Assembly: GCA_038209745.1 (NCBI GenBank)
Contig: JBBQXJ010000043.1
Location: 1-37,035 of the forward strand
Length of the DNA stretch: 37,035 nt
Direction of reading: 5' to 3'
Source: Verrucomicrobiota bacterium
GTDB lineage: Bacteria > Verrucomicrobiota > Verrucomicrobiia > Limisphaerales > CANJSG01
Below are positions 30,301 to 37,035 of the stretch, piece by piece. The position numbers and the translations under genes were made by a program. Every line of letters begins with the position of its first letter. Position 1 is the stretch's first letter. The notes beneath the pieces were generated by a model. That model worked only from the letters and a program-made list of their open reading frames with translations, searched no databases and had not been told where the DNA came from.

Positions 30301-33300
30301 AACCGATTCGATGGGACCGGGGCGATGGTGGTCTCTTCCGTCTACACCTACGATGATCGCAACTATGTCGCCACGTTGACCCATGCCGGCGCGTTCGAGA
30401 ACAAGACCCTCAACGCCTATGCCTACCAATACGATGGCAACGGATATGTGAGCCATCGCACCGACAGCGACGGCACCGCCACCTTCGGCTACGACAAGGG
30501 CACCCAGGTCGTCGCCGTCTCCTACACCAGCGGCGTGTTCGGCGGCGAAGCCTACACCTACGATGCCGCCGGCAATCCCACCGCCTCATCCCGTCAAGGC
30601 AGCGTGGTCATCGGTCCCGACAACCGCATCCTTTCCGACGACGCCTCCACCTACGACTACGACGCCGAAGGCAATCTCCTGCGAGTGACCAGCCGGTCCG
30701 ACGGAAGCTTCCGGGAATATGCCTGGGATTTCCGCAATCGTCTCACGTCCGTGACCGCCTTCTCCGGCGACAGCTCGCGGATCAAGACAACGAGCTACGA
30801 CTACGACGCGATGGACCGTCGCGTGTCCCTCAGCGTGGCGGAATTCCCGGTTTTGATCGGAAGTGCGCCGGTTACCTACTTCATCCAGGACCGCGGCCAG
30901 GTCATCCTTGAGCTCTCCGACGCCGATGGAAACGCCGGCCCCGCCCGGGCGCCTCCGACCCGCGCCTTCCTCTACGGCCTGGGCGTCGATGAGCCGTTGG
31001 CCCAAGACGACGGATCAGGCCGCGTGCTGTGGCTTCTCGCCGACGGGCAGCACCATATCCGCGACACGGCCGACAACACCGGCCGCCTGACCGACCACTT
31101 CTGGCTCGACAGTTTCGGCAATCCTCTCCGGAGAAACCCCGCCTCGCTTCCCACCCGCTATCTTTTTGCCGGCCGCGAATTCGATCCCTCCACCGGTCTC
31201 TACTACAATCGCGCCCGCTACTACGATCCCGCCGCCGGCCGCTTCATCGGCAAGGATCCCATCGGCTTCGCGGGCGGCGACTCGAATCTCTACCGCTACG
31301 CCAACAACAACCCGGTCAACCTTCGCGATCCGTCCGGAAAATCCCCGCTGAGCTTCACGGCCGACCAGCAGAAGGCCTTCGGCTTTGAAATCGGAGCCCA
31401 GCGCGAACTCGGGCGTCGTGCCGCGGCCCACGGCGGGCTCAACTCCCGCCAACGCCAGGCGCTCGGTGAAGCCAAGTTCCAGATGATCGACGCCGAGGCC
31501 GAAGGCCGGCGCGTCCAGGCAGAGAGCACCTATATCGGCGTGGCCGAGAAGTATTACCGGGAAAACTACGGCGACAGCCCGCTGGGCTACGTCTTCGGCG
31601 GTCTCATCGGCGCGGCCAAGCTGGTCTACGGGATCGTGGACCTGTCCGCGTTCTCCATCGTCGACGCGGTTGGCTACACTCGGCAGGGCTACGGGTATCA
31701 GCCGGTCGGAATGCTCGGGAATCTGGCGAGCCAGGTCGCCGACGAGACCGTGGCGGACGGAGGCGGATTCGATTCCTACTTGGGGCGATTTGGCGGCCAT
31801 CTGCTGTATGGCGCGACGCTCCAGCCCTTCGAAGGGCTCGCCCGGGCCCTGTTGGCCGGGAATTCGGCCGAGATAGGAGAGGCCTTGTTCAATGTCGGAC
31901 TCGTGGTTGCGCCCGCGTTCTTGGGCAAGGGAGGATCGGCGAACTCGGCCGGGCGCTCCGGGTTTACCGCACGGGCCGCCGAGTCGCTCGCGGACCATGC
32001 GACGCGTCAGATCGAGCATTTTGAAACGCTGCCGGCGGCCAAACTACGCGGCACCGGAGTGGAAGGGATCACGGCAGGAGTTGGTGAAGCGGCCGAAGGA
32101 GTCCGTCCTCCCCGGGCGACTGACCGCTGGTGGATGCCCCGGGACGATGTTGCGTCTACCAGCTTCCAAATGCCCAAGTCCCCGCGCCGGCCGGGGTCTG
32201 TCGAAAACACACAGCCACGCTTCCGTTGGAATCCGAGCGAGGGAGCGGGAGAAGCGGCGTTCTCCAGGCCGCGCCAGCCGACGCGGCCAGGAGCTAGCGG
32301 CAGCCTTCTCGAGGATGGCGCGGCGCGCCCATCCTCTGGTGAAAACACCGGTGGTGGAGCCGTCCGGAATAGCTCCACAGAGACTCCGGTTGCACCGGCC
32401 GCTTCCAAACAACCATCCGCGGCTGCCAAATCTGCTGCTGAAAGTCGCGAAACTAGTCCGGCAACGGCGGCGGACGGGGAGCACGCGCAACCGACTACGG
32501 CAGATGCTTCTGGGAAAATGCCCAAGGAAAAGCTTGAAGGAACGACGGCTGGAGAATCCGGGGCATCCGGGACGCCAGAGATTACCTACCCTGTCGAGGG
32601 CTTCGGGCAAAACGCGGGCGGGAAGAGGGAGGTCATTTGCACGCCTGAAGCTTTCCGGATGCTTGTGGCGTCGCATGGAAAGGAACTGGCCAAGCAGGCT
32701 GTTCTGGATCTGTTCGGTGTTGTCAGAGACGAGCGAACTGGAAACTATAATCAAGCGAGCTCGCTCAGGGTGAAGACCGCTGTTGACGAACTCAATCGGC
32801 TCGGCATCGACAACTCATATACCCACCGTGCGACGGTTGAATCGCTCGAAGCTGCAACGGCTGCAGGGCATCCCGTGTATGCGCGCACTCAAGGCCACAC
32901 CTTTGTCATCGACAGTGTATACATGGATAAAGAAGGACAATGGCGATTCGACTACCGCTCGACGAACACCGAGGTCGGCCTTGGTGATTTGAACGCCGAA
33001 CGAAAGATTGGCGAGTATTGGGCCACATCCAAATACGGAAGGAATAGTTTCACCGGTGAAGCAATCTCCACGCGACCCGGTTTCCGTTTTGAGGCCAAGG
33101 GAAAATATGCGGAATACGACCGTCTGATAGTTGAAGGAGGAACCGAAATCACAGTAAACGAGGGAAGGCCCTGGGAGTCGAAAACGAGGGTGGGTGGGTT
33201 CACAGGATTCGGCGATATCAACCGCGTCTACGACTCGACAACTGCCATTCAAGGCGTGGTCCACGAAAAACCGCTCCACCCTAGTCAATATGGCTACGAT

Positions 33301-36300
33301 CCCGGAACCACATGGCGAATAGAAAGCCAGCCAGCCAAGGCTGCCGCCAAACCCGGCGTCATTCCCGAGTCGCCGTTGTATAATGAGATTTCGTCGCGGC
33401 AGCCCCAGCCCTACAATGGCCCGACACGGTTCAACGGTTCTGTTACCGGGAGCAATCCTCGCCTAGACCCGGAATACAATCCCCAGGCACCAAGGGGAAC
33501 TTCGGGTGGAGGCTCGCCTTTGGTCTCCAACCTGGATCCCAACGGGTCTCCATCGACAACGGGCCTCAGCGGCTCTTCGACAACGGCTCCAAATCAAACG
33601 AACTCGTCGGCCAACACCGCGCTGTCTAGCGCCAACCTGACCGCCGCCATCGACGCTGCCCGCAACGCGTGGTCCCAAGTGCTGAGGTCTCCGGTTTCGC
33701 TCTCGCTCACGGTCGTGCCCACGACCCTCACACCGGGCCAGCTGGGCTACTCGGTGATCGACTCCGTCGGCACAGACGGCCTGCCGTCCCGCGGAACCCT
33801 CTATATCGACCAGGGTGGCGCGGGACGCGGATGGTATGCCGGAGTCTCAGCTCCGGCCGGCGGCGAAAAAGGATATGACCTTTCGACGCTGATCGCCCAT
33901 GAGATGGGCCATTTGCTGGGCTTCACCCGCAACTATTCGGGCTTTGCCGGTTTGGTGGCGACCGGCCCCGGCGGCGACCGTTTTTTCGCGGCGCCGGGAA
34001 TTCTGGAGCTGCTGGGCCCTGATCAGGACCATCTCTCCTCGCTCTCGCGGCCAGGCTCCCTGATGACACCTACGCTGACCGAGGGCACGCGCCGGATGCC
34101 GTCCGTCCTTGAAGGAAACATGCTGCGTGCGGCCTATACGTCGGCGGCGGCCGGCGCGCTGGCGGGGATCACGCCCAGCTTTGAACTCGCAGCCGGCGCC
34201 TCGGGCTTCACCGCCTTCGCGGCCGAATTGGCCGCGGGCGTGGCGGCGCCGCAGCCGACGTTGGTCAACGGCTCGTTCTCCGTTCCCGGCCTCGGATGGC
34301 GCACGATCGGGAGCGCGACCTTCGGCTCGGGCGGAATCGCTCTGGGCGAAGGCGGCGGATTGGCAATTTCTTCTGCGCTTCAGACATTCATCGTGCCCGA
34401 CCGCGCCGACAGCCTGATCTTCACGATCGCTTCCATCTCGCTCGGGAAAGGTTCCGGCCTGCCGCCCGACGCTTTCGAAGCCGCCTTGATCGACGCCCGC
34501 ACTGGAAAGTCGATTCTCGGGCACACGGCGGTGGGCAATACCGATTCGATCATCAACTTCGGTGGCGATGGCGCGTTCACGCTGGCGCCGGGGATGAAGT
34601 TGAAGTCCGGCACGGTCGGCGGCCCTGATCCACTGGTTTTCAGCTTGGACCTGTCGGCCGTTCCTGCCGGGACGGTGGCGACGCTTAGCTTCGACCTGAC
34701 GGGCTTCGGTGCGGTCGACAGTTCGGTGAGAATCACGTCCGCCGCCCTGAGCCAGTTGCCCTCCACGACCGGCGTTCCGAGAGTGACCTCGCTGGCCTTC
34801 GCGACCGGCGAAGGCCGGGCTCTCGCCGTCCCGGCCGGTTTGGGTGTGCTGTCCGGTGCAACCGATCCGCTGGGCCGTCCGCTCACCGCCACACTGGACG
34901 GGACGGCGCACAACGGCGTTGTCACGCTCCAAACCGACGGAAGTTTCCTCTACACGCCGGTGCCCGGCTTCGTCGGCATCGACACGTTCTTCTTCCGGGC
35001 CTTGGCCGGAAACGTGGGGTCGGATTTGGGTTCGGTCACCGTGACGGTATCGGCCGCTCCGCGTCAGCCGCCGGTTGCGGTGGACCATTCCTACACGATT
35101 CCGGCAGATGCCGCCCCCACCCGCCTCGAAGTGCTCGACGGTGCGGTCTCCGGCAATGTTGGAGATGTCCTGGGCGTGATCGCGGTGGGCAACGCAACCG
35201 GCGGCGTCGCGCGGATCTCCTCCGACGGCACCGCGATCCTCTACACGCCACTGCCGGGATTTGTCGGCCGGGATACTTTCTCCTTCACGATCCTCAATTC
35301 CTCCGGGCTGACCGCAATGGCGCAGGTGGTGGTGATGGTCGAGCCACGCATCCTCCCGAACCAGCCGCCGACCTTCACGCCTGGTCCCGATCAATCCGTC
35401 CCGTCGAACGGCGGTCGTATCGTCCGGACAGATTGGGCCACGAACATCAGTCCCGGTCCTGCCAACGAATCCTCTCAGACGGTTGCGTTCACTCTCACAG
35501 TGGATCGTCCCGAACTCTTCACCGAGCTTCCAACCGTCGCTTCGGACGGAACCCTGAGCTTTATCCCGAAACCCGGAACGTTGGGACGCGCGACGGTTTC
35601 CGTCGTGGCCCACGACTCGGGCGGCACCGACAATGGTGGCTCCGACACCTCGGCCGTCCGTTCCTTCACCATCGACGTGCAGTATGTGAACCAGCCTCCG
35701 ACTTACCGTCCCGGTGGCGACGTCACGGTGAACCAAGATTCCGGCCCTCAGACCGTCGGTGCCTGGGCCAAGGACATCGTCGCCGGTCCGCCGGGAGCCC
35801 CGGTCACGCGCGTCGATTTCGCGGTGACGAATGACCAGCCCGGACTCTTCGAGACGGCCCCGACCATCGGGAACGACGGGACGTTGCGCTTCACTCCGCA
35901 AGCCGGCGTGTTTGGAACGGCTCTTGTCACCGTCGTGGCCCGCAACGACGGCGGCACGGCCAATGGCGGAGTCGACTCCACGGTGCCGCGGACTTTCTCG
36001 ATCCGCGTCGCGGCCCTGCCCGTCATCGGCGGTGTGACCTTGGGACCGGGTGGATTCCTCTGGCAGCAGTTGAACGCCCCCGTCATCGCCTCGCTCTTCG
36101 CTTCCGCTCCGGACGGTGCCCGCGTCTCGCTCTCGATTTTGGAAGGCCCTCGCTGGCTCACGTTGGATCCGACGACCGGCCAGCTGAGTGGGGCGCCCCG
36201 TGTCGGGGATCCCGGACTCAGCACCGTGGTCGTCGCGGCCACGACCGGCACCGGCGGTGTCGTCAGCCGGAGCTTCTTGATCGGCGTCTATCGGCCCGCG

Positions 36301-36681
36301 ATCCCGCCTTCCGAATGGCAGCCGTGGTCGGAGTCCTTGGCTGCGGAGCGTGAAACGTTTGGTGTGTCTGGGCGGTTCGCCATCGGCAATGCCATGCAGG
36401 GCCGTCCACCCGAACGGATCGACGTGTCACCCGTGGAAGGCGTCGGCGACAAGATCCGGATCCAGCTGCCGGCGCCCGGCGACGTTGTTCTCGTGGAAGT
36501 GACCCTGGCCGGCGAAGACGGCGTCATCGGCACCGCAGACGATATTCGCCTGACGGGCGAGGCCGTGAAGTTCTCGATCGATGGCTTGGTTCTTACCGTG
36601 GATCTCGGCTCCGTTGCCGGGCCGGCACGCATCCAGTTCGTGATAGGAGGAGTGGTCTTCGAGGCGGACACGAAGCGGTGA
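1..36681 (+). CDS. Giant multidomain RHS/YD-repeat surface protein (beta-helix, Ig/CARDB/cadherin-like, dockerin, propellers, RHS core, internal cargo, zinc metalloprotease); 5'-partial, >=12,226 aa
   Basis: Frame 1 has no stop from base 1 (ACG CGG GTC ACG GTG GAC, TRVTVDG) to TGA 36679-36681. GC3-biased codons and recognisable domain motifs occur throughout. The GTG at 13 is unlikely to be the real start: TRVTVDGSR matches the internal repeat DRVTVDGAR near 1810, and no signal peptide is present. Confidence 0.95.
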   Translation, partial: TRVTVDGSRFSGFSETTLALPTLRNLTATNNGSGNGYVFVGGTLAADRTLDFGGLVGRVTGSVTVPAGQTLTLIPGLVLKFDQAKYLQVFGTLSAVGTASEKIILTSRHDDTAGGDTNANGSATVPQSGDWWSVYFEPGSGGSQLRFAEIRYAGNQSNPGNPSYYRSAVNLTGVTPSISDLVIRDVDFIGIQFIDSSITLARITINNARSDAFVADLASNPKLITPLVDNNGGNRLVKAGGTLPSDQVWDAGDLVIELTGSIDIPINTTLTIVAGQVVKLRQGLYIQANQGRLIADSTPSLPIVFTGVADDTAGGDSNADGNASSPIAGNWHGVYLTNATADSILRNVEIRYAGNQANPGNPSYFRYALNITGTDARVENVRIADVDYRGVRLQDASSPTVINVSVARARDYAFASDFAITPTMVNITSSSCGRDAFLFDGGTLTSSRRWSFANLPYLFNSSVTVPAGLSLTLDPGLVLKWTNAQYLQVFGTLSAVGTAAQPIILTSRRDDTALGDTFRDGSDGGAAPQRGDWQALYITSTSINTVLDNVDIRYAGNQSNPGNPSYYQDALYLAATATVTRTRIYEADYRGVEIIGAGNATLLDRVTVDGARSEAFRMTLDSVPTLRGLVSSRTGGDRISVSGEYMTVDRTFDGSGLPFHLDGNLIVPAGRTLTLVPGTVLKFGTAKYFQVYGTLNADASAGAADVFTSILDDSAGGDSNADGTATAPLPGQWHGLDFENATSSASILNNFQVRYAGNVANPGNPSYFRASIYFQNGSNATIRNGTIGQGDWRGIRISSSSPTIDSITITDHRDSPIWMDLASDPAITGLQVARNGNNGNNSILVDAGILTSPAAARRWNITVLPYQLTDNITIAAGTTLIVDPGVVVKLPQAKYVLVDGTLLSNGTAANPVIFTSLTDDTALGSIDGTDSTGVAGQWHGLIIQGPGTKLDSTEVRYAGNVANPGNPSYFRGAVYIRNTVIADNLTVRDSDSTGIILDSGASNLTLTNSRIFRSGVNDTGAWAVVDENGPLTATALNVAGGRNGIWVKNNPTATVMVTGSSFTGLTGTAARNDRNDFTSLVATGDWWGDAGGPNDPSNADGRVNNNPSGLKVGDFVDYSGFLTARPPLPGGLRVIALAPGTTNIPPSALTVTFSGPVLESSLTPARIVITGPLGVVVPVTGVTAETSSRFSLALPPGLAAGTYVVRIDALVLDSQGFPLDSPFTGGFVLDSTAPTVVSQTPTGTATSAFSQIVVKFSKAMDPATLTPLAALLAGPAGDIRILSVTRINDTDYAFGFNQQAINGTYALTIQNSVKDRSGNALAAVYVGSFVLDRAALRITGQMPGGSINTPLSSVDITFNAAILAGSFTPLSVQIVGPLGTVTATGVSRVSDTVYRITVPTQFANGTYTFTIGPSITDPAGVAMDQNADGVPGTFSDRYTGTVTVNNVGPTIVAQSPTGAPAAPAGSDFVQITFAAPIRPETLTADDVQLTGPGGTPVVVTGIEAVTGSVYRVRFAPLAVTGGYTLKVGPTVFDLLGNGMAAVYTGTFTIDAEPFFIVSSSPTTGVTTPFSSITVTFNKDVNASSFTAADAVLTGPNGVVTISSISQLNARMFNLNFASQTTVGAYSLAVGPAILDLTGNNLDQNQNGAFGEVADVFTATLALTLPNLATQEFTAPAVVSAGQTVTFTWTDANTGSAAVPFGRTDQLFLSKSGVFGASDNIVIGQVVPPGTLAPGASDALSFQWTPSFFLSGTYTVFLRTDWANVIFETNEADNAASRVVTISSARPPVNLVALGVTAPGDAQSGQTISLSYSLTNSGSGVVSGKTWNDRIYVGTGAGLDGSARLLASIPTSITLGSDATATVNVTVILPVDLTAGNYRFFVQLNTDSAVDESGFTSDNTGSSGLVALSLAPVADLVATGVAGPAGANAGTTTTVSWTVTNNGAAPAVGTVLDRIYLSTDGSLNNATLVGEFPDALNLGVGGSMSRSLDVTVPARAPGSYRFVVVTNSDNAIFERGATGNNLDASASVFVLTAPDLVAVGVSPLGAAQSGTAATVGFTVRNDGDGPASGSVSDRIFISKTAGLDGSSVLLGTDVHSVSLSAGTSEARSVNVVLPNGLSGSWFIVVVTNATGSVAEGNSANNTGVSTGFPVALAPYADLTVTTVGAPTQVVGNPADINVSWTVSNSGTGTGSQSTWTDRVIISKNATLGSGAGDTVVGEFLHDGAVPVGLSYSESKTIQLPANLEGRYYVFVVTDALAQVYQFTNTASDTGRSSAPVEISKRPYADLVVHDVTAPATGLSGQLVSISWTVANNGIAQTDAENWSDQVLVSKNGDGTGLRYLGAFSRTGILRVGDSYQRTVEVRLPQDLSGAYYVYVITAGGGTPYEAFRTDNNSGRSGPLNITLVPPPRGDLEVTRIDSVTQAFDGQSIDVSWSVRNNGPESLTAGFSDALYLVPSGAVGLQGAKELVRLSRPDGLGSGLSYSRTVNVPLFSKISGVYTLVVVTDVDGTADFVDSTNNRLSSAALTIVLRDRPYLQVTQASGPTATVTERTVVDVTWTVTNLGTAATQVGGSRWSDGVYLSLDGQLDNGDTLLGSKVNGSALAVGQAYSSTGSFVLPKGVAGNAFIIIKADTAGQVDQQPRPGVGYFVIPIAINAVPVPPSDLVTRGVSAPPQAFDNTTITVRYNVANLGIGVTSSGSWTDQIWLTLAKDRPNPNRGDIFLGAFGHSGALAVGQSYDAAVDVHLPQGMRGSFFITVWTNSGLQVFETALDVNLNPDAVGDLQGNNFKATPIQVLQQPSADLVVTQVTAPVKMVAGQQVTVSWTVENQGAIPTNIDRWMDSVYLANGPTLGSPGSNPVRIFAAPNFGVLNPGQSYTQNATFTLPPSATGSYVIVQTNEEPFAIVPDDNQLLSEVDAIIRRAEAAFGKPLSQINLSDVGQLTRGQVLQILTGPGQSAPGRVYEGPYTDNNERSAATTVINRAPDLRVTAISATPTTFSGEQITVNWTVTNVGTEPVYSGTKGWDDWALLSDRDTFSTDTVSPLGSATHLSPAPLMPGESYTASITVRVPEGIEGVRYVFVATDPAVGFQNGFHISLEPLGPASFPGWPSAFVHRVWEGEDKRNNFSANAPVNIVYREADLKIVSAGGPTAADSGSTLTVDYSATNAGTRATRTDSWSDRVFLSRDPTLDSTDKLVGSTTHHGALTVGESYSGTVDLRLPDNIGGTFYLIVVANSGTYDNSYDPSIFPGALVFGSPGLNEYRNLEPNSTTLPLTVNAVPLPDLRVGSVVAPERALQGQGFTVTWTVTNSGPGGVPDRQVPWTDRVYLSRDQTLDLSNDLFIGSVDRTMPLASGASYSVTRDYSLPRGITGGYYVFVVTDLADGYRPRGRVVESNENNNALVSSVPMLIDLPPPTDLVIDSVVGPTNLSVGGTGTLTLTVSNRGSVAAIGSWFDSVYVSADTRWDVGDALLGTANPPQGGRTLQPGQSYTVQIPFTMPATLPGNYRFIGRTDVFKDINEGPRTDNNTTVAVDAVTVSVPTLTLGVPLTTDLPSKGELLFQLVVPADQTVLVALQSLGGGGANELYVRRGNLPSSQVFDAAFPGGLQSDQTAIIPTTVAGTYYVLVRSQGGAAVSQIKLTAQALPFGISGVTPDEVGAGRFATVTVTGAQFSPQATVKLIRPQFGEYVPVNYTVVDATRIVAVFDLRNAPLGLYDLQVANPNGAVAILPYRFMVSTALPLDATVGLGGPDEILLSKAGFPNATYSFSLLSLTNIDAPYVFLQFGVPRLANSSNVIPGERLLFQSNLGGTPGVDGVPWANLSSALNLNGVLTASGFAYDFNAKGFGALTFGVEIYPELKRLLKENPKFLEQLSDSDLASLKFNFYIFASATPMTSAEYVAFQRQRANDLRTKILLEPTAPQALRAVASDQATFADFYLASLEKAGVLRAVDTPPSARTAAVFDSDVAVMVAGLLGNTSGAGVVSSSVDGLAGFFDLIRKWAGNQPDAYGGSALPDRSSYDLGLSSATHFEAFRIRVKVPDDFFADSSFNGDDAGQTVDNSLNLGGLFSGSAASSPGVTIRGPSGFGSGNVLPGGYALPYVIQYTASPLASSTVRELRVVERIDPSLDVRSFQLAALRLGDLTVDIPAGRGAFSGEFNYVADRGYILQVVAGVDVVERVATWTVRAIDADTGLATDLPNVGLLKPGQTAEFGYTIKALPEAVTGTVVTAQARVFADQLDAVDTNRISAILDTAAPTTTVSSGGAGNTWLVEWSAVDDPGGSGVRDYTVFVSVDGRIYSALQIRTTNTRFTYNAPDGVVPSFLVLAKDNAGNVEVAPDGVSLPIYGSGVNLGSASLEQPSSVEPLPRLNPVAASPLNALFLRSLAGIPGPVPVTRLPDFTRVIDPFAAASFARGLGSSGAGIGALGVAVGHDGRVWVTGGGGRNEIYLLGPGGGPVGSPLATLDTPVYALVFDRDGQLWATSGGGQLLQLDPETGGVIDRYGSGITLGLAADPSSSTLYVASASGVQKFDTVSRKFTPFSATRVEGLAVGPGGTLYGIQWPDGGDLITFDRRGRASVVLDLGGQGIGLAFGTAGSRLDGLLFVSRTNGALTVVDTASLSTTVIASGAGRGAFVTAGTDGRIYIAGRNGVDVLFPASAPTVIASDPANGQGVQGNVNRISITFDATMYRGGTTDPRSVLNPSNYRIIDMATGQPVPVGAVLYDEATRKAELVFEPLAPSSYELRVLATVQDDLGNALGTPYSAGFAVVQDQTVALGGSVQYANTRIDRGAGTISFDVRVLNSTAEALGGPVRISFLSIAAQGLTFVNGVGAAAPASIDLVPSTGILAVGANTAWATVTVRDPAAVDLDFSSIKVETGVSPARRPLFQTSAPTVATVGDPFRYDVGAIDPRGGPIRYVLINGPTGASLDSTTGLLTWNPSSGDSAAQPFEVRAIDGTGAYARQTFTVAVSGTNAAPFLAVVADQKVAEGGLLSVRFAAVDPEGQPVTLWVDSLPAGATFDAATNTLRWRPLGGQAGLYPGVSVTATDGVVRTTRTFQITVTPANQPPEFAVPIDRSVNEGSTLTFQLRATDPEGSPLTFSSDALPTGAVLVPATGVFTWTPQFYQHGVYQVPVKVGDGQSSVARTFTITVANLNGPVQFVALDPLTVRAGQAFQVRVVAIDSNVPPTGEGTSLTQAPSTSPAQTLAYTFDALPAGAAYDPVTQLLTWTPTPAQAGVTTIQFAARNDGDGTGTPNSATQTVRIEVLAVNIAPVVAPISNQSVATGGSLVIPVASVDANGNPIVLSVEGLPSFATFTDFGNGTGRIVADPQPTQRGNYTITIRAADNGNGVPTEVLTGVMSFVLSVTSVNEPPVMEFIGPSVAVVGEELGFLVRVADLDQDPLIFGATGLPAGAVFEATSVYGIAEFRWTPTAADIGSRSFTLQVQDDGNHGAGAVASSQRTVAVTVRASNTAPTLGAVVPQTVAQGGALSFSLAGLDPDGDVVSYRATGLPRGALLDPQSGVFSWKPDFAQAGTFAFTVSVGDGNRSASRTVSVTVNVTPQRPQIVPGPQVLGQEGLTLAFQVYGNDPNGGTLSWSAQNLPKGAVFNPANQTFTWAPGYADQGLYTLVFSARNAAGLEASTSALVQILNVNRPPVFNAPPAHQVVAGNDLSVQLVAVDPDAGSTLTYTAVNLPTGATFDPATGTLHWKPGGVQAGRYDIPISVSDGSLAVTQVLPIFVTAQAQVPVVRIEVTPGFAVVPGATVVLQATAAGLAPITGISVFVDGVARILDNLGRVTLVPTQPGRIIVTATATDADGYVGQGSAEILVRDPLDRTAPAVTLEVPPLDSVLRGPLEVLGSVSDVNLEFWRVELSPLGGGAARVLGNGTTVPTGALGLIDTTRLENGPYLLSLVARDMGGRSSRIDRVVEINSTDKGAAFVRVETDVTAILDGVLVPITRRYSSLLADNDGLFGPGWQFVLAEPRFASNVPGTGHETDGIYNAFTAGARVYATLPDGTRTAFQFTPQAIVVGGLTFYQPKWTAVDAGAGFTLSSGAALLELRGGAFYQVGTGLPYNPASGRFTGADFVLTATGGTRYSYDADSGLKEVTASNGTTLVWTDGGFIAPNGDRLVVEKAASGHVARVAAPNGDSAIYSYAANGALLQVTRLEAGKRTWLGYRADGGRLLTEVAGENGVSVRYDGTGAVAGVDPIRAVEGTSRQFLGNSASGSLASGGDDLYAIIVGASELASASNGLVTLAIQITGTGGFNPAAAGLRGATPVFTSTAAGTSLALYTLRTAGPLTLEITGADATTAGGYSVRITIAGDVNGDAAVDAADETQFNAAFGTTTGQAGYVASADFDGNGVIDSADRAYLQAGFGFVADRAPVAKGASFTTAGGVPVAVDLGALATDPQGSKLFFTVGTVTGGTVRLLDGTHTAVFTPTPGFVGPGGFDLRADNLSLGTATVRVAVEMLATPLANLRFSAANAPNLDLGSLSRLDVLADLPNGETLTLGPGQFTVSTSDPSVVQVAQDGSLFATAVGHATVVFDLGGGKKLATAVTVGGADNRQVEFFPEGYALQAGGTRQFLVKERTNDAYLDRSSAGDGSLYFTSDPAVATINAAGLLTAFRNGEVTVTTVNGGQSRQVRVVISVALPSGGLIGAAGGLIASGGVTVGVPAGAFDGPTPVVVTPLAPAAAGLAAPDGWVVGNGVHIEWGNGSPGGPYSLEMPAPSGSHPGDVVYLMAPITLKPGLGQPDVQGWLSLDTMVVGDDGMMRTTSPPNLGLAAKRQFLTNYNLYVAQALGISAFALTAGTAGGAVGIGVATILTTQAALIPLLAIAEYRLAIGANRGPSIYALSNGMGVITGALVDAPTGYKVTVSRVDQDGLRTVFAQDAVKVAPGTSVTFSIDVPGAAIVQPDRAPTVTGATFDFGINPDLPLPRLVLAGTDFLATQNNPAAGPLGTRVEDLYVTFEVGGRDTLNPDGTINQVGGRDVVVLGTRLSMEGNDHLVVPVPAGAQIAGATITVTRPTMLPRDGKYQRQEFTSNGVQLVVQSRYVFTANGGAGSVSIFDSLATTTFTPVLNGTPGDPLVKFDPREVARVALSDPVDGAPRNITVTADGTRAYVTFDGTNKIAVLDALVLHQIDVDGDLAGIQSITLPGGAQVWDVAVEKGGRYLYASDSAKGVVYVVDIDPHSPTYNHYIQNLYVNPAPLGLRGIALNSDDSRLYLTAPGRTIFGQYGASDGRVLVIDTNVATRKAPVFTPSVSTILTVGPEPYDITGTDDPNVMLLVDRMSDSQGVGILRRSVVAAGGVALHDVNFLSLLGFGQVPRFIEGRATQVFGLTNASGIAYVPANSLPGLDGKPFTHPGYAFISTYNRFTPGDPKRDPALGPILAYNYYYSNSSGSPIGVPLAAGSNVGVIRNPLGSFSDVSATPRIVAATSPVANGFADSIAVSPLSGIVMVPMQGQNRVYAYSAATIVRTVELEAKGDPVRDFSQLNPGEEIPAALSRLLRGPLSSIPIDIYQRAVGLRSSFGYYQNNPGELLLGVPPTGPYGETPNAFTPISAPRLPRGIAATPILRGDPLELLETPYNQAPTLLSFPSDPLSVPAGTTAMAEVHTGSLREFHAMPTYSSVGVNRGATLVYDSLRAEARPIYYFNFGGLPSDPAARLVVRLTLRLGDQVYTADGLSAEQAATLGLRTGDNFFKLPTGGGPTDTFGGAIQIDMTDVETGLYSLSLEYGVFTERDGRWTEGRFTTFTQPYVVVNEKKSQFGAGWGLSGYQQIYAGDGGVALVDGNGQEQIFQAPRVAGDPFTSRSSADYSVLKQQGDGTFERRMLDGTIYVFDAKGRISTVTDRNNNATRYNYAGDMLASIVDPVGLTTVFEPGGSRTSAIRDPAGRTLRFSYDGSGNVIRLTDPDNSACTFSYENASFKYLMTGEVQKRGASSGAYPDEPLPADQFKETFSYDKFGRLSGGKRADGKSFIITPAQVFAVFSVPDTTDPSKAPTVVKLATTRDPEKLAKSEAVSSYTGFDGAKIQYGLSAFGQLIRSEDGEGRVTISARDANGLIKTETDAVGNLTTSLYDLFNNLSMRIDAVGTASWTYDPTKFNRLVSHTDETGRKTDYDIDPASGDIKSIKITAAPGQNAGGLETSTAMFTYYPNGLVHTLKDALGNKVSSTYDAYGRLTEVVQPDLTSRSQTYVDLAGTVGSVVDESGNRTELEYDRMNRATVRRAFSTDASGARVTYAWSEAYDAAGNIIRRVDSNGNITLFEYDRLNRVSKRVEGASGSVSGDLNITTLFGYERGALATTYSLPAAEAGSTYKYVKDPLGYVSVQIFDRFGDVRYSIDNLGRVTETRFDLARHPIATILPDGSRITYKVDSRGRVVSQSGPTTESVSFEYDGANNVILRTVANTGGDQVTTTAYNLFDKPTRVTDAEGNVTVMEYDGAGRLVKATQAFGTPDVFVTELTVDTRGRITKQVIQGTATTGFEYSGTGKLVFSTDARGFTSSYGYDGLDRLVRETNAAGEIVLTSYDGEGNKLSMIDGRARGDASNTAFRTSFAYDAVNRLVRMTDPLGGVTIREYDAASNLIATVDARGGGNAADARYRTQYFYDAAKRRLRMIDAESGITVYEYNLLDDRTLIVDPRAGGVKGRGYDTVMTYDSSRRLQSRTDALGQITNYFYDKVGNLVRVSGPQSAIHDTFYAYDKLNRRTSAETGADRKDGVATKTAYDAFGLVVATTDVLGHVSQYTYDSLKHLASRTDAAGTADARTTRFDNDALGNVTRIHDPRGAFYDIVREYDGLGRVVHETRNTGLPDGPGPVYDVRTTYDLAGNVTQVTDPKGGGLVVKYEYDALNRRVRSVNQAGNQTVFSFDAVGDLVAVVDARGKGDPGASGYRTTYAYDGLKRNVRIVDPLGGITLMAYDAVGNQISVTTPLAQGSAANGFTTRVAYDALNRMVSRTDAEGNRTGYKYNEIGLVTKIIDPRSDVGTGGDYSTSISYDDRNHESARTVTLGIGGGDPAASRTVYDALGNLISRQDARGAYYTTTYAYDALNRMVSMTVPGGSAEEHGDPLVTHYAYDAADNVTSTTDPRGFTVTQTWDPFGRRMSMTLPGGDGALPAKTSYTYDASGNLLTMTDPRGDYYTTVTTYDVLNRPSTVTHPAGTPGEPGLPQIVRYSYDEVGNVVGTTVVRYGLTGFIDRVTGTDFDALNRAVRTTDPLGYVTEYGYDEDGDVLTTTYRPAEGSTERVVTNTYDQLGRVISKVDAGGYTTTMAYDAVGNVVRKAGPYAGSSGGPYVTVMVYDAGSRLRSATDAEGYVYRYEYDAVGNRTAENDGRGDYYRTTHTYDARNLLLSSTSPTGSPASSGLAVTTSYVYDGSGNLTKMVDPRGSAFATEYFYDAQNRLVRLNVVAGSPGSPVVQTESYTYDAVGNRLTETDQRGASYATSSTYDAFNRAVSRTIPAGPQDAPRNVTETMVYDTDGNLVRHVGFGGAEFVTEMSYDALGRMVRQIDAEGIAQTRTYDRFGNVLSVTTPLGTSESKFDALNRPSTVKDALGEITSYAYDAARHITTVTDPLANATVMEYDGLGRLVRQTDAASKSDRYGYDAVGNRVLTIDRRGTKTVYEYDARNLLLATTEAAGTPDSAVMTSAYDNMGWLVRQTGYSGSDQTIDYQRDNLGRVVVRTTATTTNDAIVETMSYDAIGNLVRYVPGRGEAFAVENTYDRRSQLVATRKNAGTAAAPLLATELTTYDDAGRAVEMLDALGQKTKRTYDRINRQTSETVITSEAFGGQLLSTWSYEYVSGTLRVTYRDALRSVADLIVYDSVGRLVRRENREAGLTVNEYDKAGNLVATSTGLIARSYKFDSLNRRIKTLDEAGNIIAEAYDEVGNIVKRTDAEGNVTTFTFDRRNRQVSMTDARRATTVTAYDGSGNVVSITDPNGNVTSYTYDLANRRLTDGTVFGTRVFAYDADGNMVASKDRNGRQIGYTYDGLGRRRTEVWVDGAGPDQNITFTSVFDADGRLVAISDGRWSSTFTFSPDARNLLTGETILGPAGFGSARLDWTFDVVGMATSVSVSLNGAMNPAVRTDYSFDAVTHRLVEVAQSGTFAGAKSASYTYAENLFRVGSINRFDGTGAMVVSSVYTYDDRNYVATLTHAGAFENKTLNAYAYQYDGNGYVSHRTDSDGTATFGYDKGTQVVAVSYTSGVFGGEAYTYDAAGNPTASSRQGSVVIGPDNRILSDDASTYDYDAEGNLLRVTSRSDGSFREYAWDFRNRLTSVTAFSGDSSRIKTTSYDYDAMDRRVSLSVAEFPVLIGSAPVTYFIQDRGQVILELSDADGNAGPARAPPTRAFLYGLGVDEPLAQDDGSGRVLWLLADGQHHIRDTADNTGRLTDHFWLDSFGNPLRRNPASLPTRYLFAGREFDPSTGLYYNRARYYDPAAGRFIGKDPIGFAGGDSNLYRYANNNPVNLRDPSGKSPLSFTADQQKAFGFEIGAQRELGRRAAAHGGLNSRQRQALGEAKFQMIDAEAEGRRVQAESTYIGVAEKYYRENYGDSPLGYVFGGLIGAAKLVYGIVDLSAFSIVDAVGYTRQGYGYQPVGMLGNLASQVADETVADGGGFDSYLGRFGGHLLYGATLQPFEGLARALLAGNSAEIGEALFNVGLVVAPAFLGKGGSANSAGRSGFTARAAESLADHATRQIEHFETLPAAKLRGTGVEGITAGVGEAAEGVRPPRATDRWWMPRDDVASTSFQMPKSPRRPGSVENTQPRFRWNPSEGAGEAAFSRPRQPTRPGASGSLLEDGAARPSSGENTGGGAVRNSSTETPVAPAASKQPSAAAKSAAESRETSPATAADGEHAQPTTADASGKMPKEKLEGTTAGESGASGTPEITYPVEGFGQNAGGKREVICTPEAFRMLVASHGKELAKQAVLDLFGVVRDERTGNYNQASSLRVKTAVDELNRLGIDNSYTHRATVESLEAATAAGHPVYARTQGHTFVIDSVYMDKEGQWRFDYRSTNTEVGLGDLNAERKIGEYWATSKYGRNSFTGEAISTRPGFRFEAKGKYAEYDRLIVEGGTEITVNEGRPWESKTRVGGFTGFGDINRVYDSTTAIQGVVHEKPLHPSQYGYDPGTTWRIESQPAKAAAKPGVIPESPLYNEISSRQPQPYNGPTRFNGSVTGSNPRLDPEYNPQAPRGTSGGGSPLVSNLDPNGSPSTTGLSGSSTTAPNQTNSSANTALSSANLTAAIDAARNAWSQVLRSPVSLSLTVVPTTLTPGQLGYSVIDSVGTDGLPSRGTLYIDQGGAGRGWYAGVSAPAGGEKGYDLSTLIAHEMGHLLGFTRNYSGFAGLVATGPGGDRFFAAPGILELLGPDQDHLSSLSRPGSLMTPTLTEGTRRMPSVLEGNMLRAAYTSAAAGALAGITPSFELAAGASGFTAFAAELAAGVAAPQPTLVNGSFSVPGLGWRTIGSATFGSGGIALGEGGGLAISSALQTFIVPDRADSLIFTIASISLGKGSGLPPDAFEAALIDARTGKSILGHTAVGNTDSIINFGGDGAFTLAPGMKLKSGTVGGPDPLVFSLDLSAVPAGTVATLSFDLTGFGAVDSSVRITSAALSQLPSTTGVPRVTSLAFATGEGRALAVPAGLGVLSGATDPLGRPLTATLDGTAHNGVVTLQTDGSFLYTPVPGFVGIDTFFFRALAGNVGSDLGSVTVTVSAAPRQPPVAVDHSYTIPADAAPTRLEVLDGAVSGNVGDVLGVIAVGNATGGVARISSDGTAILYTPLPGFVGRDTFSFTILNSSGLTAMAQVVVMVEPRILPNQPPTFTPGPDQSVPSNGGRIVRTDWATNISPGPANESSQTVAFTLTVDRPELFTELPTVASDGTLSFIPKPGTLGRATVSVVAHDSGGTDNGGSDTSAVRSFTIDVQYVNQPPTYRPGGDVTVNQDSGPQTVGAWAKDIVAGPPGAPVTRVDFAVTNDQPGLFETAPTIGNDGTLRFTPQAGVFGTALVTVVARNDGGTANGGVDSTVPRTFSIRVAALPVIGGVTLGPGGFLWQQLNAPVIASLFASAPDGARVSLSILEGPRWLTLDPTTGQLSGAPRVGDPGLSTVVVAATTGTGGVVSRSFLIGVYRPAIPPSEWQPWSESLAAERETFGVSGRFAIGNAMQGRPPERIDVSPVEGVGDKIRIQLPAPGDVVLVEVTLAGEDGVIGTADDIRLTGEAVKFSIDGLVLTVDLGSVAGPARIQFVIGGVVFEADTKR
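3390..4985 (+). other. Five SbsA/Big_5-like Ig domains (part of the giant CDS)
   Basis: Repeating pattern such as PTVVSQTP...IVVKFSKAMDPATL...GTYALTI...DRSGNAL; units start near 3391, 3697, 4003, 4342 and 4657. Confidence 0.7.
4990..10595 (+). other. Array of 14 CARDB-like domains (part of the giant CDS)
   Basis: xDLxVxxVxAP...VSWTVxNxG...WxDxVYLS...E.NExNN pattern; units start near 4990, 5356, 5734, 6094, 6460, 6844, 7219, 7588, 7972, 8386, 8932, 9397, 9823 and 10222. Confidence 0.8.
10600..11185 (+). other. PPC-like (pre-peptidase C-terminal) domain followed by an IPT/TIG-like domain
   Basis: ANELYVRRGNLPS...AGTYYVLVR (PPC-like), then ISGVTPDEVG...VTVTGAQF...GLYDLQVANPNG (IPT-like). Confidence 0.6.
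12190..13010 (+). other. DUF7619-like beta domain plus FN3-like domain
   Basis: GPSGFG...LPYVIQY...IDPSLDVRSFQL, then APTTTV...WSAVDDPGGSGVRDYTVFVSVDG...AKDNAGNVE. Confidence 0.45.
13180..13935 (+). other. NHL/SMP-30-like beta-propeller
   Basis: Blade-like repeats: LGVAVGHDGRVWVT, ALVFDRDGQLWAT, GLAADPSSSTLYVA, GLAVGPGGTLYG, GTDGRIYIA. Confidence 0.7.
14610..17185 (+). other. Nine cadherin-like / He_PIG putative Ig domains
   Basis: NxxP...V.EG..L.F...A.DPDG..L.[YF]....LP.GA.[FL]D..TG.F.W.P pattern; units start near 14614, 14881, 15154, 15424, 15766, 16066, 16369, 16639 and 16912. Confidence 0.8.
17760..18590 (+). other. First, short RHS-like module (DUF6531-like start plus a few YD repeats)
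   Basis: DVTAILDGVLVPITRRYSS...GLFGPGW, then GTRYSYDADSGLKEVTASNG, YSYAANGALLQV and VRYDGTG. No RHS core follows this module. Confidence 0.6.
18922..19086 (+). other. Dockerin-like domain (two EF-hand-like Ca2+ loops)
   Basis: GDVNGDAAVDAAD...ADFDGNGVIDSAD duplicated motif. Confidence 0.8.
21100..22400 (+). other. YVTN/YncE-type beta-propeller
   Basis: YVFTANGGAGSVSIFD, PRNITVTADGTRAYVT, WDVAVEKGGRYLYASD, LRGIALNSDDSRLYLT, VGPEPYDIT. Confidence 0.7.
22795..31150 (+). repeat. Main RHS/YD-repeat shell (dozens of YD repeats)
   Basis: Starts with GSLREFH..LVYDS and SQFGAGWGL. Continuous YDxxGN...DPRG...YDALNR-type repeats run from ~23400 to ~31100. Confidence 0.92.
31150..31341 (+). other. RHS repeat-associated core with aspartyl autoprotease motif
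   Basis: RYLFAGREFDPSTGLYYNRARYYDPAAGRFIGKDPIGFAGGDSNLYRYANNNPVNLRDPSGK. DPIG is at 31255, PxxxxDPxG at 31312-31338. Confidence 0.95.
32580..33075 (+). other. Putative papain-fold (C39-like) cysteine protease cargo domain
   Basis: GQ(32608)...C(32638)TPEAFRML helix, ATVESLEAATAAGHPVYA, GH(32896)TFVIDSV strand, possible third residue D at 32950. Confidence 0.55.
33630..34140 (+). other. Zinc metalloprotease domain (metzincin; matrixin/leishmanolysin-like)
   Basis: YDLSTLIAHEMGHLLGF (H 33898, E 33901, H 33910), later DH(34030)L and SLM(34063)TPTL as a Met-turn. Confidence 0.75.
34255..36678 (+). other. C-terminal tail: jelly-roll-like domain, 2 Big_9-like, 2 cadherin-like Ig, 1 He_PIG-like and a terminal beta domain
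   Basis: DGSFLYTPVPGFVGIDTF and ILYTPLPGFVGRDTFSFT (Big_9). NQPPTFTPGPDQSV and NQPPTYRPGGDVTV start at 35359 and 35689. GPRWLTLDPTTGQLSGAP (He_PIG) and GEDGVIGTADD follow. Confidence 0.65.
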
Positions 36682-36839: not shown

Positions 36840-36951
36840 GTAAGCGTCCTGCGGAGCGGCTCTGTTAGAGCGGCGGCATAGATGTCATAGGGATGGTAAG
36901 CGTCCTGCGGAGCGGCTCTGTTAGAGCGGCGGCATAGATGTCATAGGGATG
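36840..36951 (+). repeat. Perfect tandem direct repeat, 2 x 56 bp, of an IS66-like left end
   Basis: GTAAGCGTCCTGCGGAGCGGCTCTGTTAGAGCGGCGGCATAGATGTCATAGGGATG occurs at 36840-36895 and again at 36896-36951. Confidence 0.95.
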
Positions 36952-36956
36952 GGTCT

Positions 36957-37035
36957 ATGGCATCGATGAAGCTGTTGAAGAGGGACGTGCTGGGGCGGGT
37001 GCGGACGCCGAGGGCGAAACGGGAGGAGATCCTGG
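36957..37035 (+). CDS. tnpA: IS66-family accessory protein TnpA, 3'-partial
   Basis: ATG at 36957 gives MASMKLLKRDVLGRVRTPRAKREEIL. This resembles the LKxDVLGRVRTPxxRRExLLxEFERSG N-terminus I recall from verrucomicrobial IS66 TnpA proteins, and it overlaps in sequence with the minus-strand remnant. Confidence 0.7.
   Translation, partial: MASMKLLKRDVLGRVRTPRAKREEIL

Follow-up and report, generated by a model that had tools for sequence, protein, structure and literature searches.

A giant RHS-repeat protein with a variable module between its Rhs core and a conserved metzincin, CBM-like and Ig-type tail

The window, by which we mean the whole 37,035-nt stretch of DNA analysed here, comes from a sediment Verrucomicrobiota bacterium and carries a giant gene whose product is probably an Rhs-type polymorphic effector with internal cargo, one that by analogy would combine a MARTX-like logic with an SGS1-like topology. 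Its exchangeable payload is placed mid-chain, behind an RHS cage and ahead of a conserved tail that pairs a protease with adhesin-type domains, rather than at the end of the chain, where such payloads usually sit.

Architecture of the giant protein

A single open reading frame (ORF) of 12,226 codons, open at its 5' end and with zero internal stops, occupies nt 1-36681 of the forward strand. The 3' end of contig C36 and the 5' end of contig C43 share an exact 141-nt overlap, and C36 supplies the first 329 codons, bringing the full gene to about 12,555 codons. The complete chromosome of a cultured Pirellulaceae relative holds a 12,124-aa ORF that is colinear with the window ORF, and the gene product is likely to be an exported surface protein of about 12,555 aa that belongs to a conserved family of giant proteins. 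Its N-terminal 7,800 aa contain adhesin-type domains (CARDB, Big_5, He_PIG, cadherin and dockerin, by Pfam). The ORF and the features of its C-terminal third are as follows.

1..36681, + strand: giant ORF (ORF scan; C36-C43 overlap; colinearity with the Pirellulaceae ORF)
23560..31338, + strand: RHS/YD-repeat region, about 2,593 aa and 281 kDa (PF05593, TIGR01643)
31108..31338, + strand: Rhs-associated core, ending in PVNLRDPSG (TIGR03696; alignment to solved Rhs, TcC and teneurin-like chains)
31339..32049, + strand: Gly/Ala-rich hydrophobic segment, presumed helical, 237 aa and 24.9 kDa (composition, hydropathy)
32050..32577, + strand: low-complexity linker 1, 176 aa, GC3 0.585 (composition)
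32578..33330, + strand: variable cassette, predicted papain/C39-fold cysteine peptidase (hhalign, AF2, Foldseek, VIA-align)
33331..33627, + strand: S/P/G/N/T-rich linker 2, 99 aa (composition)
33628..34239, + strand: metzincin-like zinc peptidase, conserved (homology, AF2, Foldseek)
34240..34749, + strand: CBM/lectin-like β-sandwich with a PPDAFE motif (alignment, AF2, Foldseek)
34750..36678, + strand: Ig-type tail with Cadherin_4/5, Big_9, He_PIG and a terminal β domain (Pfam)

The RHS region is matched by PF05593 in 30 stretches (E 1.4e-200, Pfam) and by TIGR01643 (E 9.9e-153, NCBIfam). TIGR03696 (Rhs_assc_core, NCBIfam) scores 84.2 bits against a cut-off of 32.5, and its match ends exactly at PVNLRDPSG, the only PxxxxDPxG motif in the whole ORF (aa 10438-10446, nt 31312-31338). 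The putative autoprotease residues R10406 (nt 31216), D10419 (nt 31255) and D10443 (nt 31327) are all present, with the spacing of R2103/D2116/D2140 described for a bacterial teneurin-like protein (PMC13018210), and the RHS region is read as ending in a complete putative Rhs autoprotease motif. By sequence, the solved structures closest to the core are those of bacterial teneurin-like proteins (PDB 9pt5 and 9ifo; E 2.4e-15); SGS1 and SGS4 are also among its matches.

Beyond PVNLRDPSG the ORF continues for 1,780 aa (183.4 kDa), passing in order through the Gly/Ala-rich hydrophobic segment, linker 1, the papain/C39-fold cassette, linker 2, the HExxHxLGF metzincin, the CBM-like β-sandwich and the cadherin/Big_9/He_PIG Ig domains. 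An earlier note on this DNA had described an RHS protein running from core through hydrophobic helices and a variable cassette to a metalloprotease and an Ig tail, with a DPxG site at nt 31312-31338, a hydrophobic region farther on and about 1,780 aa beyond the site; every one of these parts was recovered in the one ORF, at that site and with that length.

Conserved flanks and unrelated middles

Of 81 ORFs examined with a profile HMM of the Rhs core, 19 (the window and 18 other loci) contain both a core and the HExxH motif, the core lying 537-1005 aa ahead of the motif; when only ORFs whose available upstream sequence reaches 1,200 aa are counted, the figure is 16 of 49. This HMM added L023 to the set and rejected the cores that a regular expression had picked out in L027, L063, L053, L058 and L096, and the stop-to-stop ORFs of L049, L034, L032 and L045 that had passed as "complete" gave no usable N-termini. 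Each of the 18 other loci, one of them the complete Pirellulaceae chromosome, encodes in a single ORF an Rhs core, an intervening 446-914 aa and then the metzincin-CBM module.

Both flanks of the window align with all 18 loci, the last 400 aa of the RHS region at 27-53% identity (E 1e-8 to 1e-120) and the metzincin plus CBM at 28-46% identity (E 1e-38 to 1e-103). In contrast, the middles of 15 of the 18 loci compare with that of the window at E ≥ 0.09, and the other three give a weak match in the papain domain (E 1e-3 to 1e-4). BLASTP sorts the 19 middles into 14 unrelated clusters, and at the E-values searched neither the window's middle nor those of 16 of the 18 loci match any Pfam or NCBIfam family. 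The nearest tail relatives, P0006 (50-52% identity) and L022 (46-49%), likewise have middles unrelated to the window's.

The edges of the unrelated stretch are sharp. Among seven long alignments, homology ends at window aa 10446-10451 in five, at aa 10481 and 10506 in the remaining two, and resumes at aa 11176-11230; the homologue from the complete Pirellulaceae genome aligns in one 9,560-aa HSP that stops at window aa 10451. The variable region begins at most five residues past the DPxG cleavage motif. As judged by these comparisons, the stretch between the core and the C-terminal module is a recombination-swapped, lineage-specific module, and we assume that the middles serve as effectors. 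The earlier note had proposed such an alignment of homologues for its reading of an RHS protein that resembles polymorphic toxins and has a variable domain sandwiched within it, a reading that it would have given up had the middle been as conserved as the flanks. The flanks and middles behave as that reading foresaw; its confinement of the variability to a globular cassette does not stand, as the cassette does vary but distant relatives are unrelated to the window all the way from DPxG to the metzincin.

Composition of the hydrophobic segment, linkers and cassette

The Gly/Ala-rich segment behind DPSG reaches Kyte-Doolittle peaks (19 residues) of 1.63 at about nt 31606-31653 and 1.49 at about nt 31891-31915, and its composition and hydropathy weakly suggest that it is helical. 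It has zero Pfam matches and shares 31% identity with the post-DPSG segment of P0005, and a small HMM built from it matches only P0005, P0002, P0006 and L028. Under a loose hydropathy criterion, 18 of the 19 middles contain such a segment in their first 300 aa, the same criterion also being satisfied later in the middle by 8 of the 19. The hydrophobic segment and the cassette are both rare, as nt 31339-33360 matched no more than two proteins at E ≤ 1e-3 when run against the full library with HMMER, too few for deep alignments; a scan of metagenome contigs with the hydrophobic segment and linker 1 yielded 359 pattern matches, of which zero were confirmed.

Across the ORF, GC3 averages 0.813 (sd 0.056; 480 sliding windows of 250 codons), and the hydrophobic segment, at 0.81, is host-like. 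All 21 sliding windows with GC3 below 0.70 start at nt 31726-33226, with a minimum of 0.556 at nt 32401, so that the dip is confined to about nt 31726-33975 and has no counterpart elsewhere in the 36.7-kb gene. Linker 1 (15% A, 12% G, 11% S, 10% P and 9% T) and the cassette (GC 0.542, GC3 0.586) both fall within it. The foreign composition that had been assigned to a cassette at about nt 32580-33330 is thereby confirmed in kind but not in extent, the true stretch being about nt 32050-33627 with both linkers included.

The cassette as a candidate cysteine peptidase

The cassette, previously noted as a variable globular domain, is itself a predicted papain/C39-fold cysteine peptidase, an assignment drawn from hhalign, Foldseek and VIA-align and made with a PF13529 score (14.8 bits, E 0.043) that lies below the Pfam gathering score of 24. 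Against the cassettes of L039, L044 and L047, in which the papain fold is likewise found, hhalign gives a probability of 86.8% with Cys and His aligned; in the window these positions correspond to Cys10880 (nt 32638) and His10966 (nt 32896), the candidate catalytic residues, and a third catalytic residue was not found in the cassette. The AF2 model of the cassette is weak overall, with a mean pLDDT of 50.5 and values of 70-78 over residues 20-130, and only residues 16-168 were used for fold comparison. In this model Cys21 heads a helix spanning residues 18-31. The top Foldseek matches listed are all papain-like, at E-values no better than 1.3e-3, and VIA-align superposes the model on 6mpz with a Z score of 11.4 and an rmsd of 2.7 over 120 aligned residues; nearly all of its best 50 entries are papain-fold proteins, mostly cysteine peptidases.

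The conserved C-terminal module

The metzincin-like domain carries the motifs HEMGHLLGF (nt 33898), DQDH (nt 34021-34032) and LM (nt 34063), and the alignment to the tail of the same-genus protein P0002 begins at its first nucleotide, nt 33628. In a set of 44 sequences, the H, E and second H of HExxH show conservation of 90% or more, up to complete invariance. No Pfam peptidase family matches the domain at threshold, and NF038122 (metallo_LGF) gives a faint 23.5 bits, below its curated cut-off of 80, though the HExxHxLGF motif is present; a PDB sequence search with the tail found only faint M7/MMP matches (E 0.11-0.29). The AF2 model, with a pLDDT of 90.2, finds leishmanolysin (1lml, 2.3e-4) and MMP-11 (1hv5, 2.6e-4) in Foldseek, and motif and fold matches together liken the domain to NF038122, leishmanolysin (M8) and MMP proteins. 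Leishmanolysin itself has the HExxHxLGF motif.

Foldseek relates the β-sandwich that follows to the CBM of the mannanase 1wky (1.7e-4), CBM4, CBM16 and legume lectins. The Ig-type tail is the best-conserved stretch in the alignment to P0002, and the last ~1,017 aa, which are 47% identical to a same-genus genome, are conserved across 18 loci.

Gene neighbourhood

Directly upstream of the giant gene, on the same strand, lies a cluster of OEP, HlyD, GAF-HlyD, PqqD-M50 and SecA-paralogue genes, and at 21 of 80 loci the giant gene has GAF-HlyD, PqqD-M50 and SecA-like genes next to it. In the complete Pirellulaceae genome the cluster does not adjoin the giant gene, and the five PqqD-M50 paralogues are all distant from it. 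No ABC transporter was found among the neighbouring ORFs scanned.

No immunity gene was seen in the window, which stops 354 nt past the stop codon, within a repeat; one may lie elsewhere.

36840..37035, no strand: 56-nt exact tandem duplication (nt 36840-36952), plus the terminal 140 nt, which recur at other contig ends (sequence repeats)

In the Pirellulaceae homologue the downstream gene is sulfatase-like and on the opposite strand, and offers no immunity candidate; elsewhere among the loci, none of the small ORFs changes in step with the type of cassette. A DUF3467 ORF is common to loci with unrelated cassettes and was not found in the window's genome (92% complete).

Comparison with known systems

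With Rhs, TcC and WapA proteins the window shares YD repeats, a core with two DPxG motifs, the R/D/D residues and an abrupt divergence right after DPxG. In the descriptions given in PMC8636562 and PMC3482391, the variable toxin of these proteins is the C-terminal-most part, has 9-20 kDa, is enclosed in the shell and is paired with an immunity gene, whereas the window has 183 kDa past its core and a conserved last ~1,017 aa, with no immunity gene seen. An Rhs cavity is given as about 28,000 cubic ångströms, with room for less than 25 kDa (PMC8636562), which is to be set beside 183 kDa for the whole tail and 24.9 kDa for the hydrophobic segment.

In the mosquito protein SGS1 (PDB 8fjp), as described in PMC9935623, the YD shell is followed by an aspartyl-protease site, hydrophobic helices of about 230 aa lie in the chamber, and the chain then passes out through the wall to a second cleavage site and an outer domain; the 237-aa hydrophobic segment of the window occupies the position equivalent to that of the helices. 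By analogy, SGS1 may be a closer precedent than the teneurins for the idea that the chain threads out of its shell. The outer domain of SGS1 is the conserved Tox-SGS, whereas the window has a swappable cassette with a protease and an Ig tail behind it. The bacterial teneurin-like proteins 9pt5 and 9ifo resemble the window in core sequence and R/D/D spacing; their C-terminal domains are reported to average about 15 kDa, fully hidden in the shell, with an immunity gene downstream (PMC13018210).

MARTX toxins are very long exported proteins with internal effector cassettes that are exchanged by recombination between conserved ends, a processing protease behind the cassettes and a C-terminus relevant to secretion. 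The window family resembles them in how it may work only, through internal cassettes exchanged between conserved flanks. Neither RTX repeats nor a C80 cysteine protease domain is among the Pfam matches over the whole ORF. In contrast to MARTX, the protease of the window is a metzincin, an RHS cocoon stands ahead of the cargo, and the neighbouring export genes are a SecA paralogue and PqqD-M50.

Proposed mechanism and implications

We propose that the protein would be exported via the adjacent OEP/HlyD/GAF-HlyD/PqqD-M50/SecA-paralogue cluster, and that the RHS cocoon would shelter the hydrophobic segment alone, in the fashion of SGS1. Like that of teneurins and SGS1, the chain would emerge from the cocoon, and the cassette and tail would therefore lie outside. 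A cut after DPSG would free the N-terminus of the cargo, the external CBM/Ig tail may bind the target surface, and a linker would be cut, by the metzincin or by the peptidase of the cassette itself, releasing or activating the cassette as an effector. In this proposal, the internal place of the cargo would follow from a need for the C-terminal module in export, anchoring or targeting.

A further-reaching version, which we put forward tentatively, is that these proteins form an undescribed class of polymorphic effectors, substrates of more than 12,000 aa of an OEP/HlyD/GAF-HlyD/PqqD-M50/SecA-paralogue exporter. The metzincin-CBM-Ig C-terminus would be kept as an export, anchoring or targeting handle, and the exchangeable cargo would therefore be internal. 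The RHS cocoon might then hold a hydrophobic segment able to insert into membranes, with a disordered linker tying it to a swappable effector outside the cage, and a second cut, by the metzincin, would free that effector.

If this were true, the at least 14 unrelated middles would constitute a pool of unknown effector families spread over PVC bacteria, Acidobacteriota and Proteobacteria. Searches for polymorphic toxins are described as targeting variable C-terminal tips (PMC3482391), and would therefore overlook a family with its variable module inside the chain. Anchoring on the Rhs core and the metzincin-CBM module and reading between them offers a route to effector domains, with 14 types among 19 members, nearly all free of family matches. 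The family also raises the structural question of whether in bacteria, as in SGS1, one stretch of a chain can sit in the cage while the rest runs on outside, and it connects these giant genes with a cluster of export genes that is so far unstudied. Experiments are possible because the cultured Pirellulaceae relative with a complete genome has a colinear gene.

Alternative explanations

The alternative that survives best, unlikely as we hold it to be, is that of a giant adhesin or exo-enzyme display protein that delivers nothing, in which the YD shell is structural, as in teneurins, and nothing is encapsulated or injected. The middle would be a displayed extracellular enzyme, here a peptidase, suited to local substrates or prey, and metzincin-CBM-Ig would be the general C-terminal end of HlyD/M50/SecA-like export substrates. 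Indeed, the metzincin-CBM module also terminates giant proteins that have no RHS region, in 33 of the 49 ORFs with enough upstream sequence, and the tail may for that reason be unrelated to cargo release; in Accumulibacter loci that lack an Rhs core a subtilase stands beside the metzincin (PF00082 at 4.6e-14 in L027). Display would also suit the adhesin-type N-terminus, the failure to find an immunity gene and the fact that the cassettes identified so far are peptidases. A purely structural shell, however, sits poorly with the retention of all three R/D/D residues, the last catalytic Asp included, which metazoan teneurins are described as missing (PMC9935623), and with variability that sets in at the classical Rhs toxin junction. 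Also at odds with display are the hydrophobic segment found behind the core in all but one of the 19 members, by the loose criterion above, and the PT-TG pre-toxin domain directly behind the core of L045 (27.1 bits against a cut-off of 23.5), a domain (PF14449) for which the post-core segment of the window gave no Pfam match. An Rhs-type effector with internal cargo is the reading that we prefer.

Logan contigs of metagenome runs X1/X2, X3 and X4 allowed the window to be compared with a close strain, represented in runs X3 and X4 from two other metagenome studies, whose flanks are 97-99% identical and in which one block is replaced by 1,099 different bases.

32484..33690, + strand: stretch swapped in the close strain, 1,207 nt against 1,099 nt (X4 record 23, X3 record 18)

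That the middle is instead a fast-evolving, loosely constrained spacer, dissimilar through drift and not through cassette exchange, is improbable. Two thirds of the window's middle are low-complexity or compositionally simple, and its want of a family match, shared with 16 of the 18 loci, would suit such a spacer, but drift accounts poorly for a block replacement between strains with nearly identical flanks or for a GC3 dip limited to one part of the gene. Nor does it explain P0004, whose papain-type cassette is 41-45% identical to that of the window, yet whose metzincin-CBM module is only 34% identical.

An assembly chimera, in which the RHS gene was misjoined to a separate metzincin/Ig gene at about nt 32000-33600, is very improbable, even though the contig is metagenome-assembled and its likely source runs are only 3-7x deep: public contigs bridge the joins, a natural variant swaps the cassette, and the same order of parts recurs in one ORF in 18 other loci, a complete chromosome among them. 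The earlier note had named a misassembly in this interval as fatal to its reading. X1/X2 contigs identical to the window span nt 31188-31573, 31921-32617, 32403-32783 and 32962-33532, with none over nt 33533-33732 among the X1/X2 pieces listed, and the start of the metzincin at nt 33628 is bridged by X3 record 20 (nt 33475-33721) and X4 record 26 (nt 33357-33700).

A giant Rhs-family protein with a long composite tail

The window is a whole contig (G000:C43) and almost wholly one 5'-open, stop-free ORF (nt 1-36681; 12,226 codons), in whose N-terminal part Pfam beta-helix, CARDB, Big_5, He_PIG, Big_9, cadherin-like and dockerin domains precede the RHS repeats. An exact 141-nt overlap of its 5' end with the 3' end of contig C36 from the same genome (G000) places the gene start at about C36:43122, for a total of about 12,555 codons, and the N-terminus of the giant protein bears a LEPLEARLMLSAD motif resembling LEGLEDRRLLA of its Pirellulaceae homologue. 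Past the gene, nt 36840-36952 form an exact 56-nt tandem duplication (repeat stretch nt 36840-37035); copies of the terminal 140 nt are found at each end of contig C30 and within C24, and a copy of about 60 nt of them at one end of C70. The 3' terminus resembles a repeated element at which the assembly broke off directly past the gene, leaving any downstream gene out of view.

The PxxxxDPxG site occurs once, as PVNLRDPSG (nt 31312-31338), and the NCBIfam Rhs-associated core model terminates on it. The three residues named as required for Rhs/TcC autoproteolysis in PMC8636562, PMC9935623 and PMC13018210 have putative counterparts in R10406, D10419 and D10443, with the spacing seen in the bacterial teneurin-like protein of solved structure (PMC13018210). 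Judged by its sequence, the window protein is a giant member of the Rhs family whose autoprotease motif is complete. Its RHS region (~2,593 aa) is far longer than the ~840-aa barrel (residues 420-1262) reported for the T6SS Rhs1 structure in PMC8636562, and is nearer the TcB+TcC cocoon in size. Two more Rhs cores occur in the genome (C91:18194-18448 and C16:65393-65566; 41-43% identical over the core), with post-core sequences unrelated to the window tail.

As the earlier note had claimed, the ORF runs far beyond the DPxG site, for 1,780 aa (183.4 kDa) that include an HExxH protease and an Ig tail. Segmentation of the tail drew on its composition, on family scans and on two structure predictions.

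RHS region and tail segments of the window ORF
~nt 23560-31338, + strand: RHS repeats (PF05593, E 1.4e-200; ~2,593 aa, 281 kDa)
nt 31339-32049, + strand: Gly/Ala-rich hydrophobic segment (237 aa, 24.9 kDa, GC3 0.81)
nt 32050-32577, + strand: low-complexity linker 1 (176 aa, GC3 0.585)
nt 32578-33330, + strand: globular cassette (251 aa, GC 0.542)
nt 33331-33627, + strand: S/P/G/N/T linker 2 (99 aa)
nt 33628-34239, + strand: zinc peptidase (204 aa, HEMGHLLGF)
nt 34240-34749, + strand: beta-sandwich (170 aa)
nt 34750-36678, + strand: Ig-type domains (643 aa)

The zinc peptidase and beta-sandwich gave a good AlphaFold model (pLDDT 90.2; 44 sequences), the first half of which resembles leishmanolysin and MMP-11 in structure searches, and the second half carbohydrate-binding modules and lectins.

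Conserved flanks enclose a variable middle

In two genomes of the same genus, 5'-truncated ORFs are 47% identical to the window tail over their last ~1,050 aa, the alignment beginning exactly at nt 33628 with none further upstream. A profile scan for the metzincin-CBM module (zinc peptidase plus beta-sandwich), with one genome per species, confirmed 142 relatives, from which 80 loci were retained. By core HMM, a true Rhs core lies in the same ORF, 537-1005 aa upstream of HExxH, in 18 of the 80; with the window included, core and metzincin share an ORF in 19/81 cases, or 16/49 where 1,200 aa or more is available upstream. By record title, these 18 loci span Verrucomicrobiota, Planctomycetota, Acidobacteriota and Proteobacteria.

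Alignment of the segments intervening between core and HExxH bears out the proposal of a variable domain sandwiched between conserved flanks, rather than a middle as conserved as its surroundings. All 18 loci match the window both over the final 400 aa of RHS (E 1e-8 to 1e-120) and in the metzincin-CBM module (E 1e-38 to 1e-103), while 15 of their middles give E >= 0.09 against the window middle and the other three (L039, L044 and L047) match only weakly (E 1e-3 to 1e-4; 21-23% over 108-134 aa). Clustering sorts the 19 middles into 14 groups. At least 19 family members thus share this design of Rhs core, variable middle and conserved metzincin-CBM-Ig C-terminus. Homology to the window stops at aa 10446-10451 in five of seven long alignments; in the comparison with a complete Pirellulaceae chromosome and its 12,124-aa ORF, a single 9,560-aa HSP stops at aa 10451 and matching restarts at aa 11207. 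The left breakpoint of the variable middle is the classical Rhs breakpoint.

The internal module is horizontally exchanged

In windows of 250 codons, mean GC3 over the ORF is 0.813 (sd 0.056), and the 21 of 480 windows below 0.70 all start at nt 31726-33226. Part of the stretch is present in twenty public sediment and soil metagenome runs, four of which were mapped onto nt 30500-35000. Two of these, both from a single study and possibly the source, have identical short contigs spanning the DPxG site and the cassette left edge. In two runs of two other studies, a closely related strain shares ~97-98.5% identity with the window as far as nt 31978-32483 and 99.4% beginning at nt 33979, and has 1,099 other letters in place of nt 32484-33690; in each run a single contig carries the replacement, of 4,572 nt in one and 1,952 nt in the other, and small contigs from the same runs span nt 33628 in the window's form. 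The nearest tails, those of the related protein P0006 (50-52%) and locus L022 (46-49%), follow middles unrelated to the window's, and protein P0004 combines a metzincin-CBM module just 34% identical with a cassette 41-45% identical and then a different (PKD) tail. Cassette and backbone relationships are incongruent.

Drift as the cause of the divergent middles is rejected by the GC3 dip, the block replacement between strains and this incongruence. The misassembly or chimeric join near 32000-33600 that the earlier note had considered is likewise rejected, as public contigs bridge the DPxG site, the cassette left edge and nt 33628. The internal module is hypervariable and horizontally exchanged.

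A 1,710-nt contig (record 26 of X4, one of the related-strain runs) matches nt 33357-33700 alone, with 24 differences, and is otherwise unlike the window, a hint of a third allele that combines another cassette with a shared linker 2.

Predicted fold of the cassette and contents of other middles

The cassette is predicted to have a papain/C39 fold. Its Pfam C39_2 match is below threshold (E 0.043), and its AlphaFold model (five sequences; mean pLDDT 50.5) is confident over residues 20-130 only, with Cys10880 heading a helix. The top Foldseek matches listed for this model are all papain-like cysteine peptidases (E 1.3e-3 at best), and papain-fold proteins, predominantly cysteine peptidases, make up nearly all of the best 50 VIA-align entries, the best being a double-glycine C39 protease (Z 11.4). 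The L039, L044 and L047 cassettes are papain-like too, and profile comparison with the window cassette gave a probability of 86.8% with Cys and His aligned.

At the E-values searched, neither the window's middle nor those of 16 of the 18 loci matched Pfam or NCBIfam. L045 has a PT-TG pre-toxin domain immediately past the core, and L039 a sub-threshold C39_2 match. The variable middle of the deltaproteobacterial locus L040 (7727-9931) contains a further metzincin-like stretch of the LGF type (NF038122, E 2.7e-4), so its protein would carry two such peptidases. Giant ORFs of two Accumulibacter MAGs, L027 and L063, have the metzincin-CBM tail and lack the Rhs core by core HMM; in L027 a subtilase (PF00082, 4.6e-14) lies just 5' of the metzincin, so this position may hold enzymes in non-RHS relatives as well. 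A hydrophobic 19-residue window (KD >= 1.2) falls within 300 aa past the core in 18 of 19 middles, a loose criterion since 8/19 also pass further along.

Export genes, proposed mechanism and main rival

Five genes lie directly 5' of the gene start:
G000:C36:34712-43001 (L107 4712-13001), same strand as the giant gene: OEP (TolC-like), HlyD, GAF-HlyD, PqqD-M50(-HlyD-like) and a SecA paralogue

Apart from this cluster, contig C22 encodes the canonical SecA. GAF-HlyD/PqqD-M50/SecA-like homologues adjoin a giant metzincin-CBM-tailed gene, with or without RHS, in at least 21 of the 80 loci (four of them in the Rhs set), a floor because the giant ORFs themselves fill the upstream flanks. The cluster is not beside the 12,124-aa homologue in the complete Pirellulaceae genome. 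That chromosome (G061:C1) has five dispersed PqqD-M50 paralogues, none close to the homologue.

PMC8636562 gives the Rhs cavity as ~28,000 cubic angstroms with a capacity below 25 kDa, so that, of the tail, the 24.9-kDa hydrophobic segment alone plausibly stays inside the cocoon, even a larger, Tc-sized one. In SGS1 (PMC9935623), the chain exits the shell and leads to a further cleavage site and to an outer domain, the arrangement we infer for the window. The hydrophobic segment would remain inside the RHS shell while the chain exits, and the cassette would serve as an effector on a tether, to be freed by one of the two predicted peptidases; its internal position would reflect the need for the C-terminal module to remain terminal. 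In MARTX toxins, too, the cargo is internal and the C-terminal module keeps its terminal place. Polymorphic toxins were defined by a variable C-terminal-most domain in Zhang et al. 2012 (PMC3482391). In full-text searches covering the main text of openly accessible articles, we found no description of an Rhs core with a swappable internal module and conserved metzincin-Ig tail, nor of the neighbouring OEP/HlyD/GAF-HlyD/PqqD-M50/SecA-paralogue cluster.

The main rival to such a delivery system is an adhesin or enzyme-display protein that delivers nothing. It is favored by the metzincin-CBM tail also ending giant proteins without RHS, and by the surroundings of the complete-genome homologue and the other loci examined, where no candidate immunity gene was seen. 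Four loci from Proteobacteria, L038 (14097-15060), L039, L044 and L047, have a ~100-aa DUF3467 ORF immediately 3' of the giant gene; it was rejected as an immunity gene because it is common to loci with unrelated cassettes. In L038, a PEP-CTERM protein is encoded 3' of this ORF.
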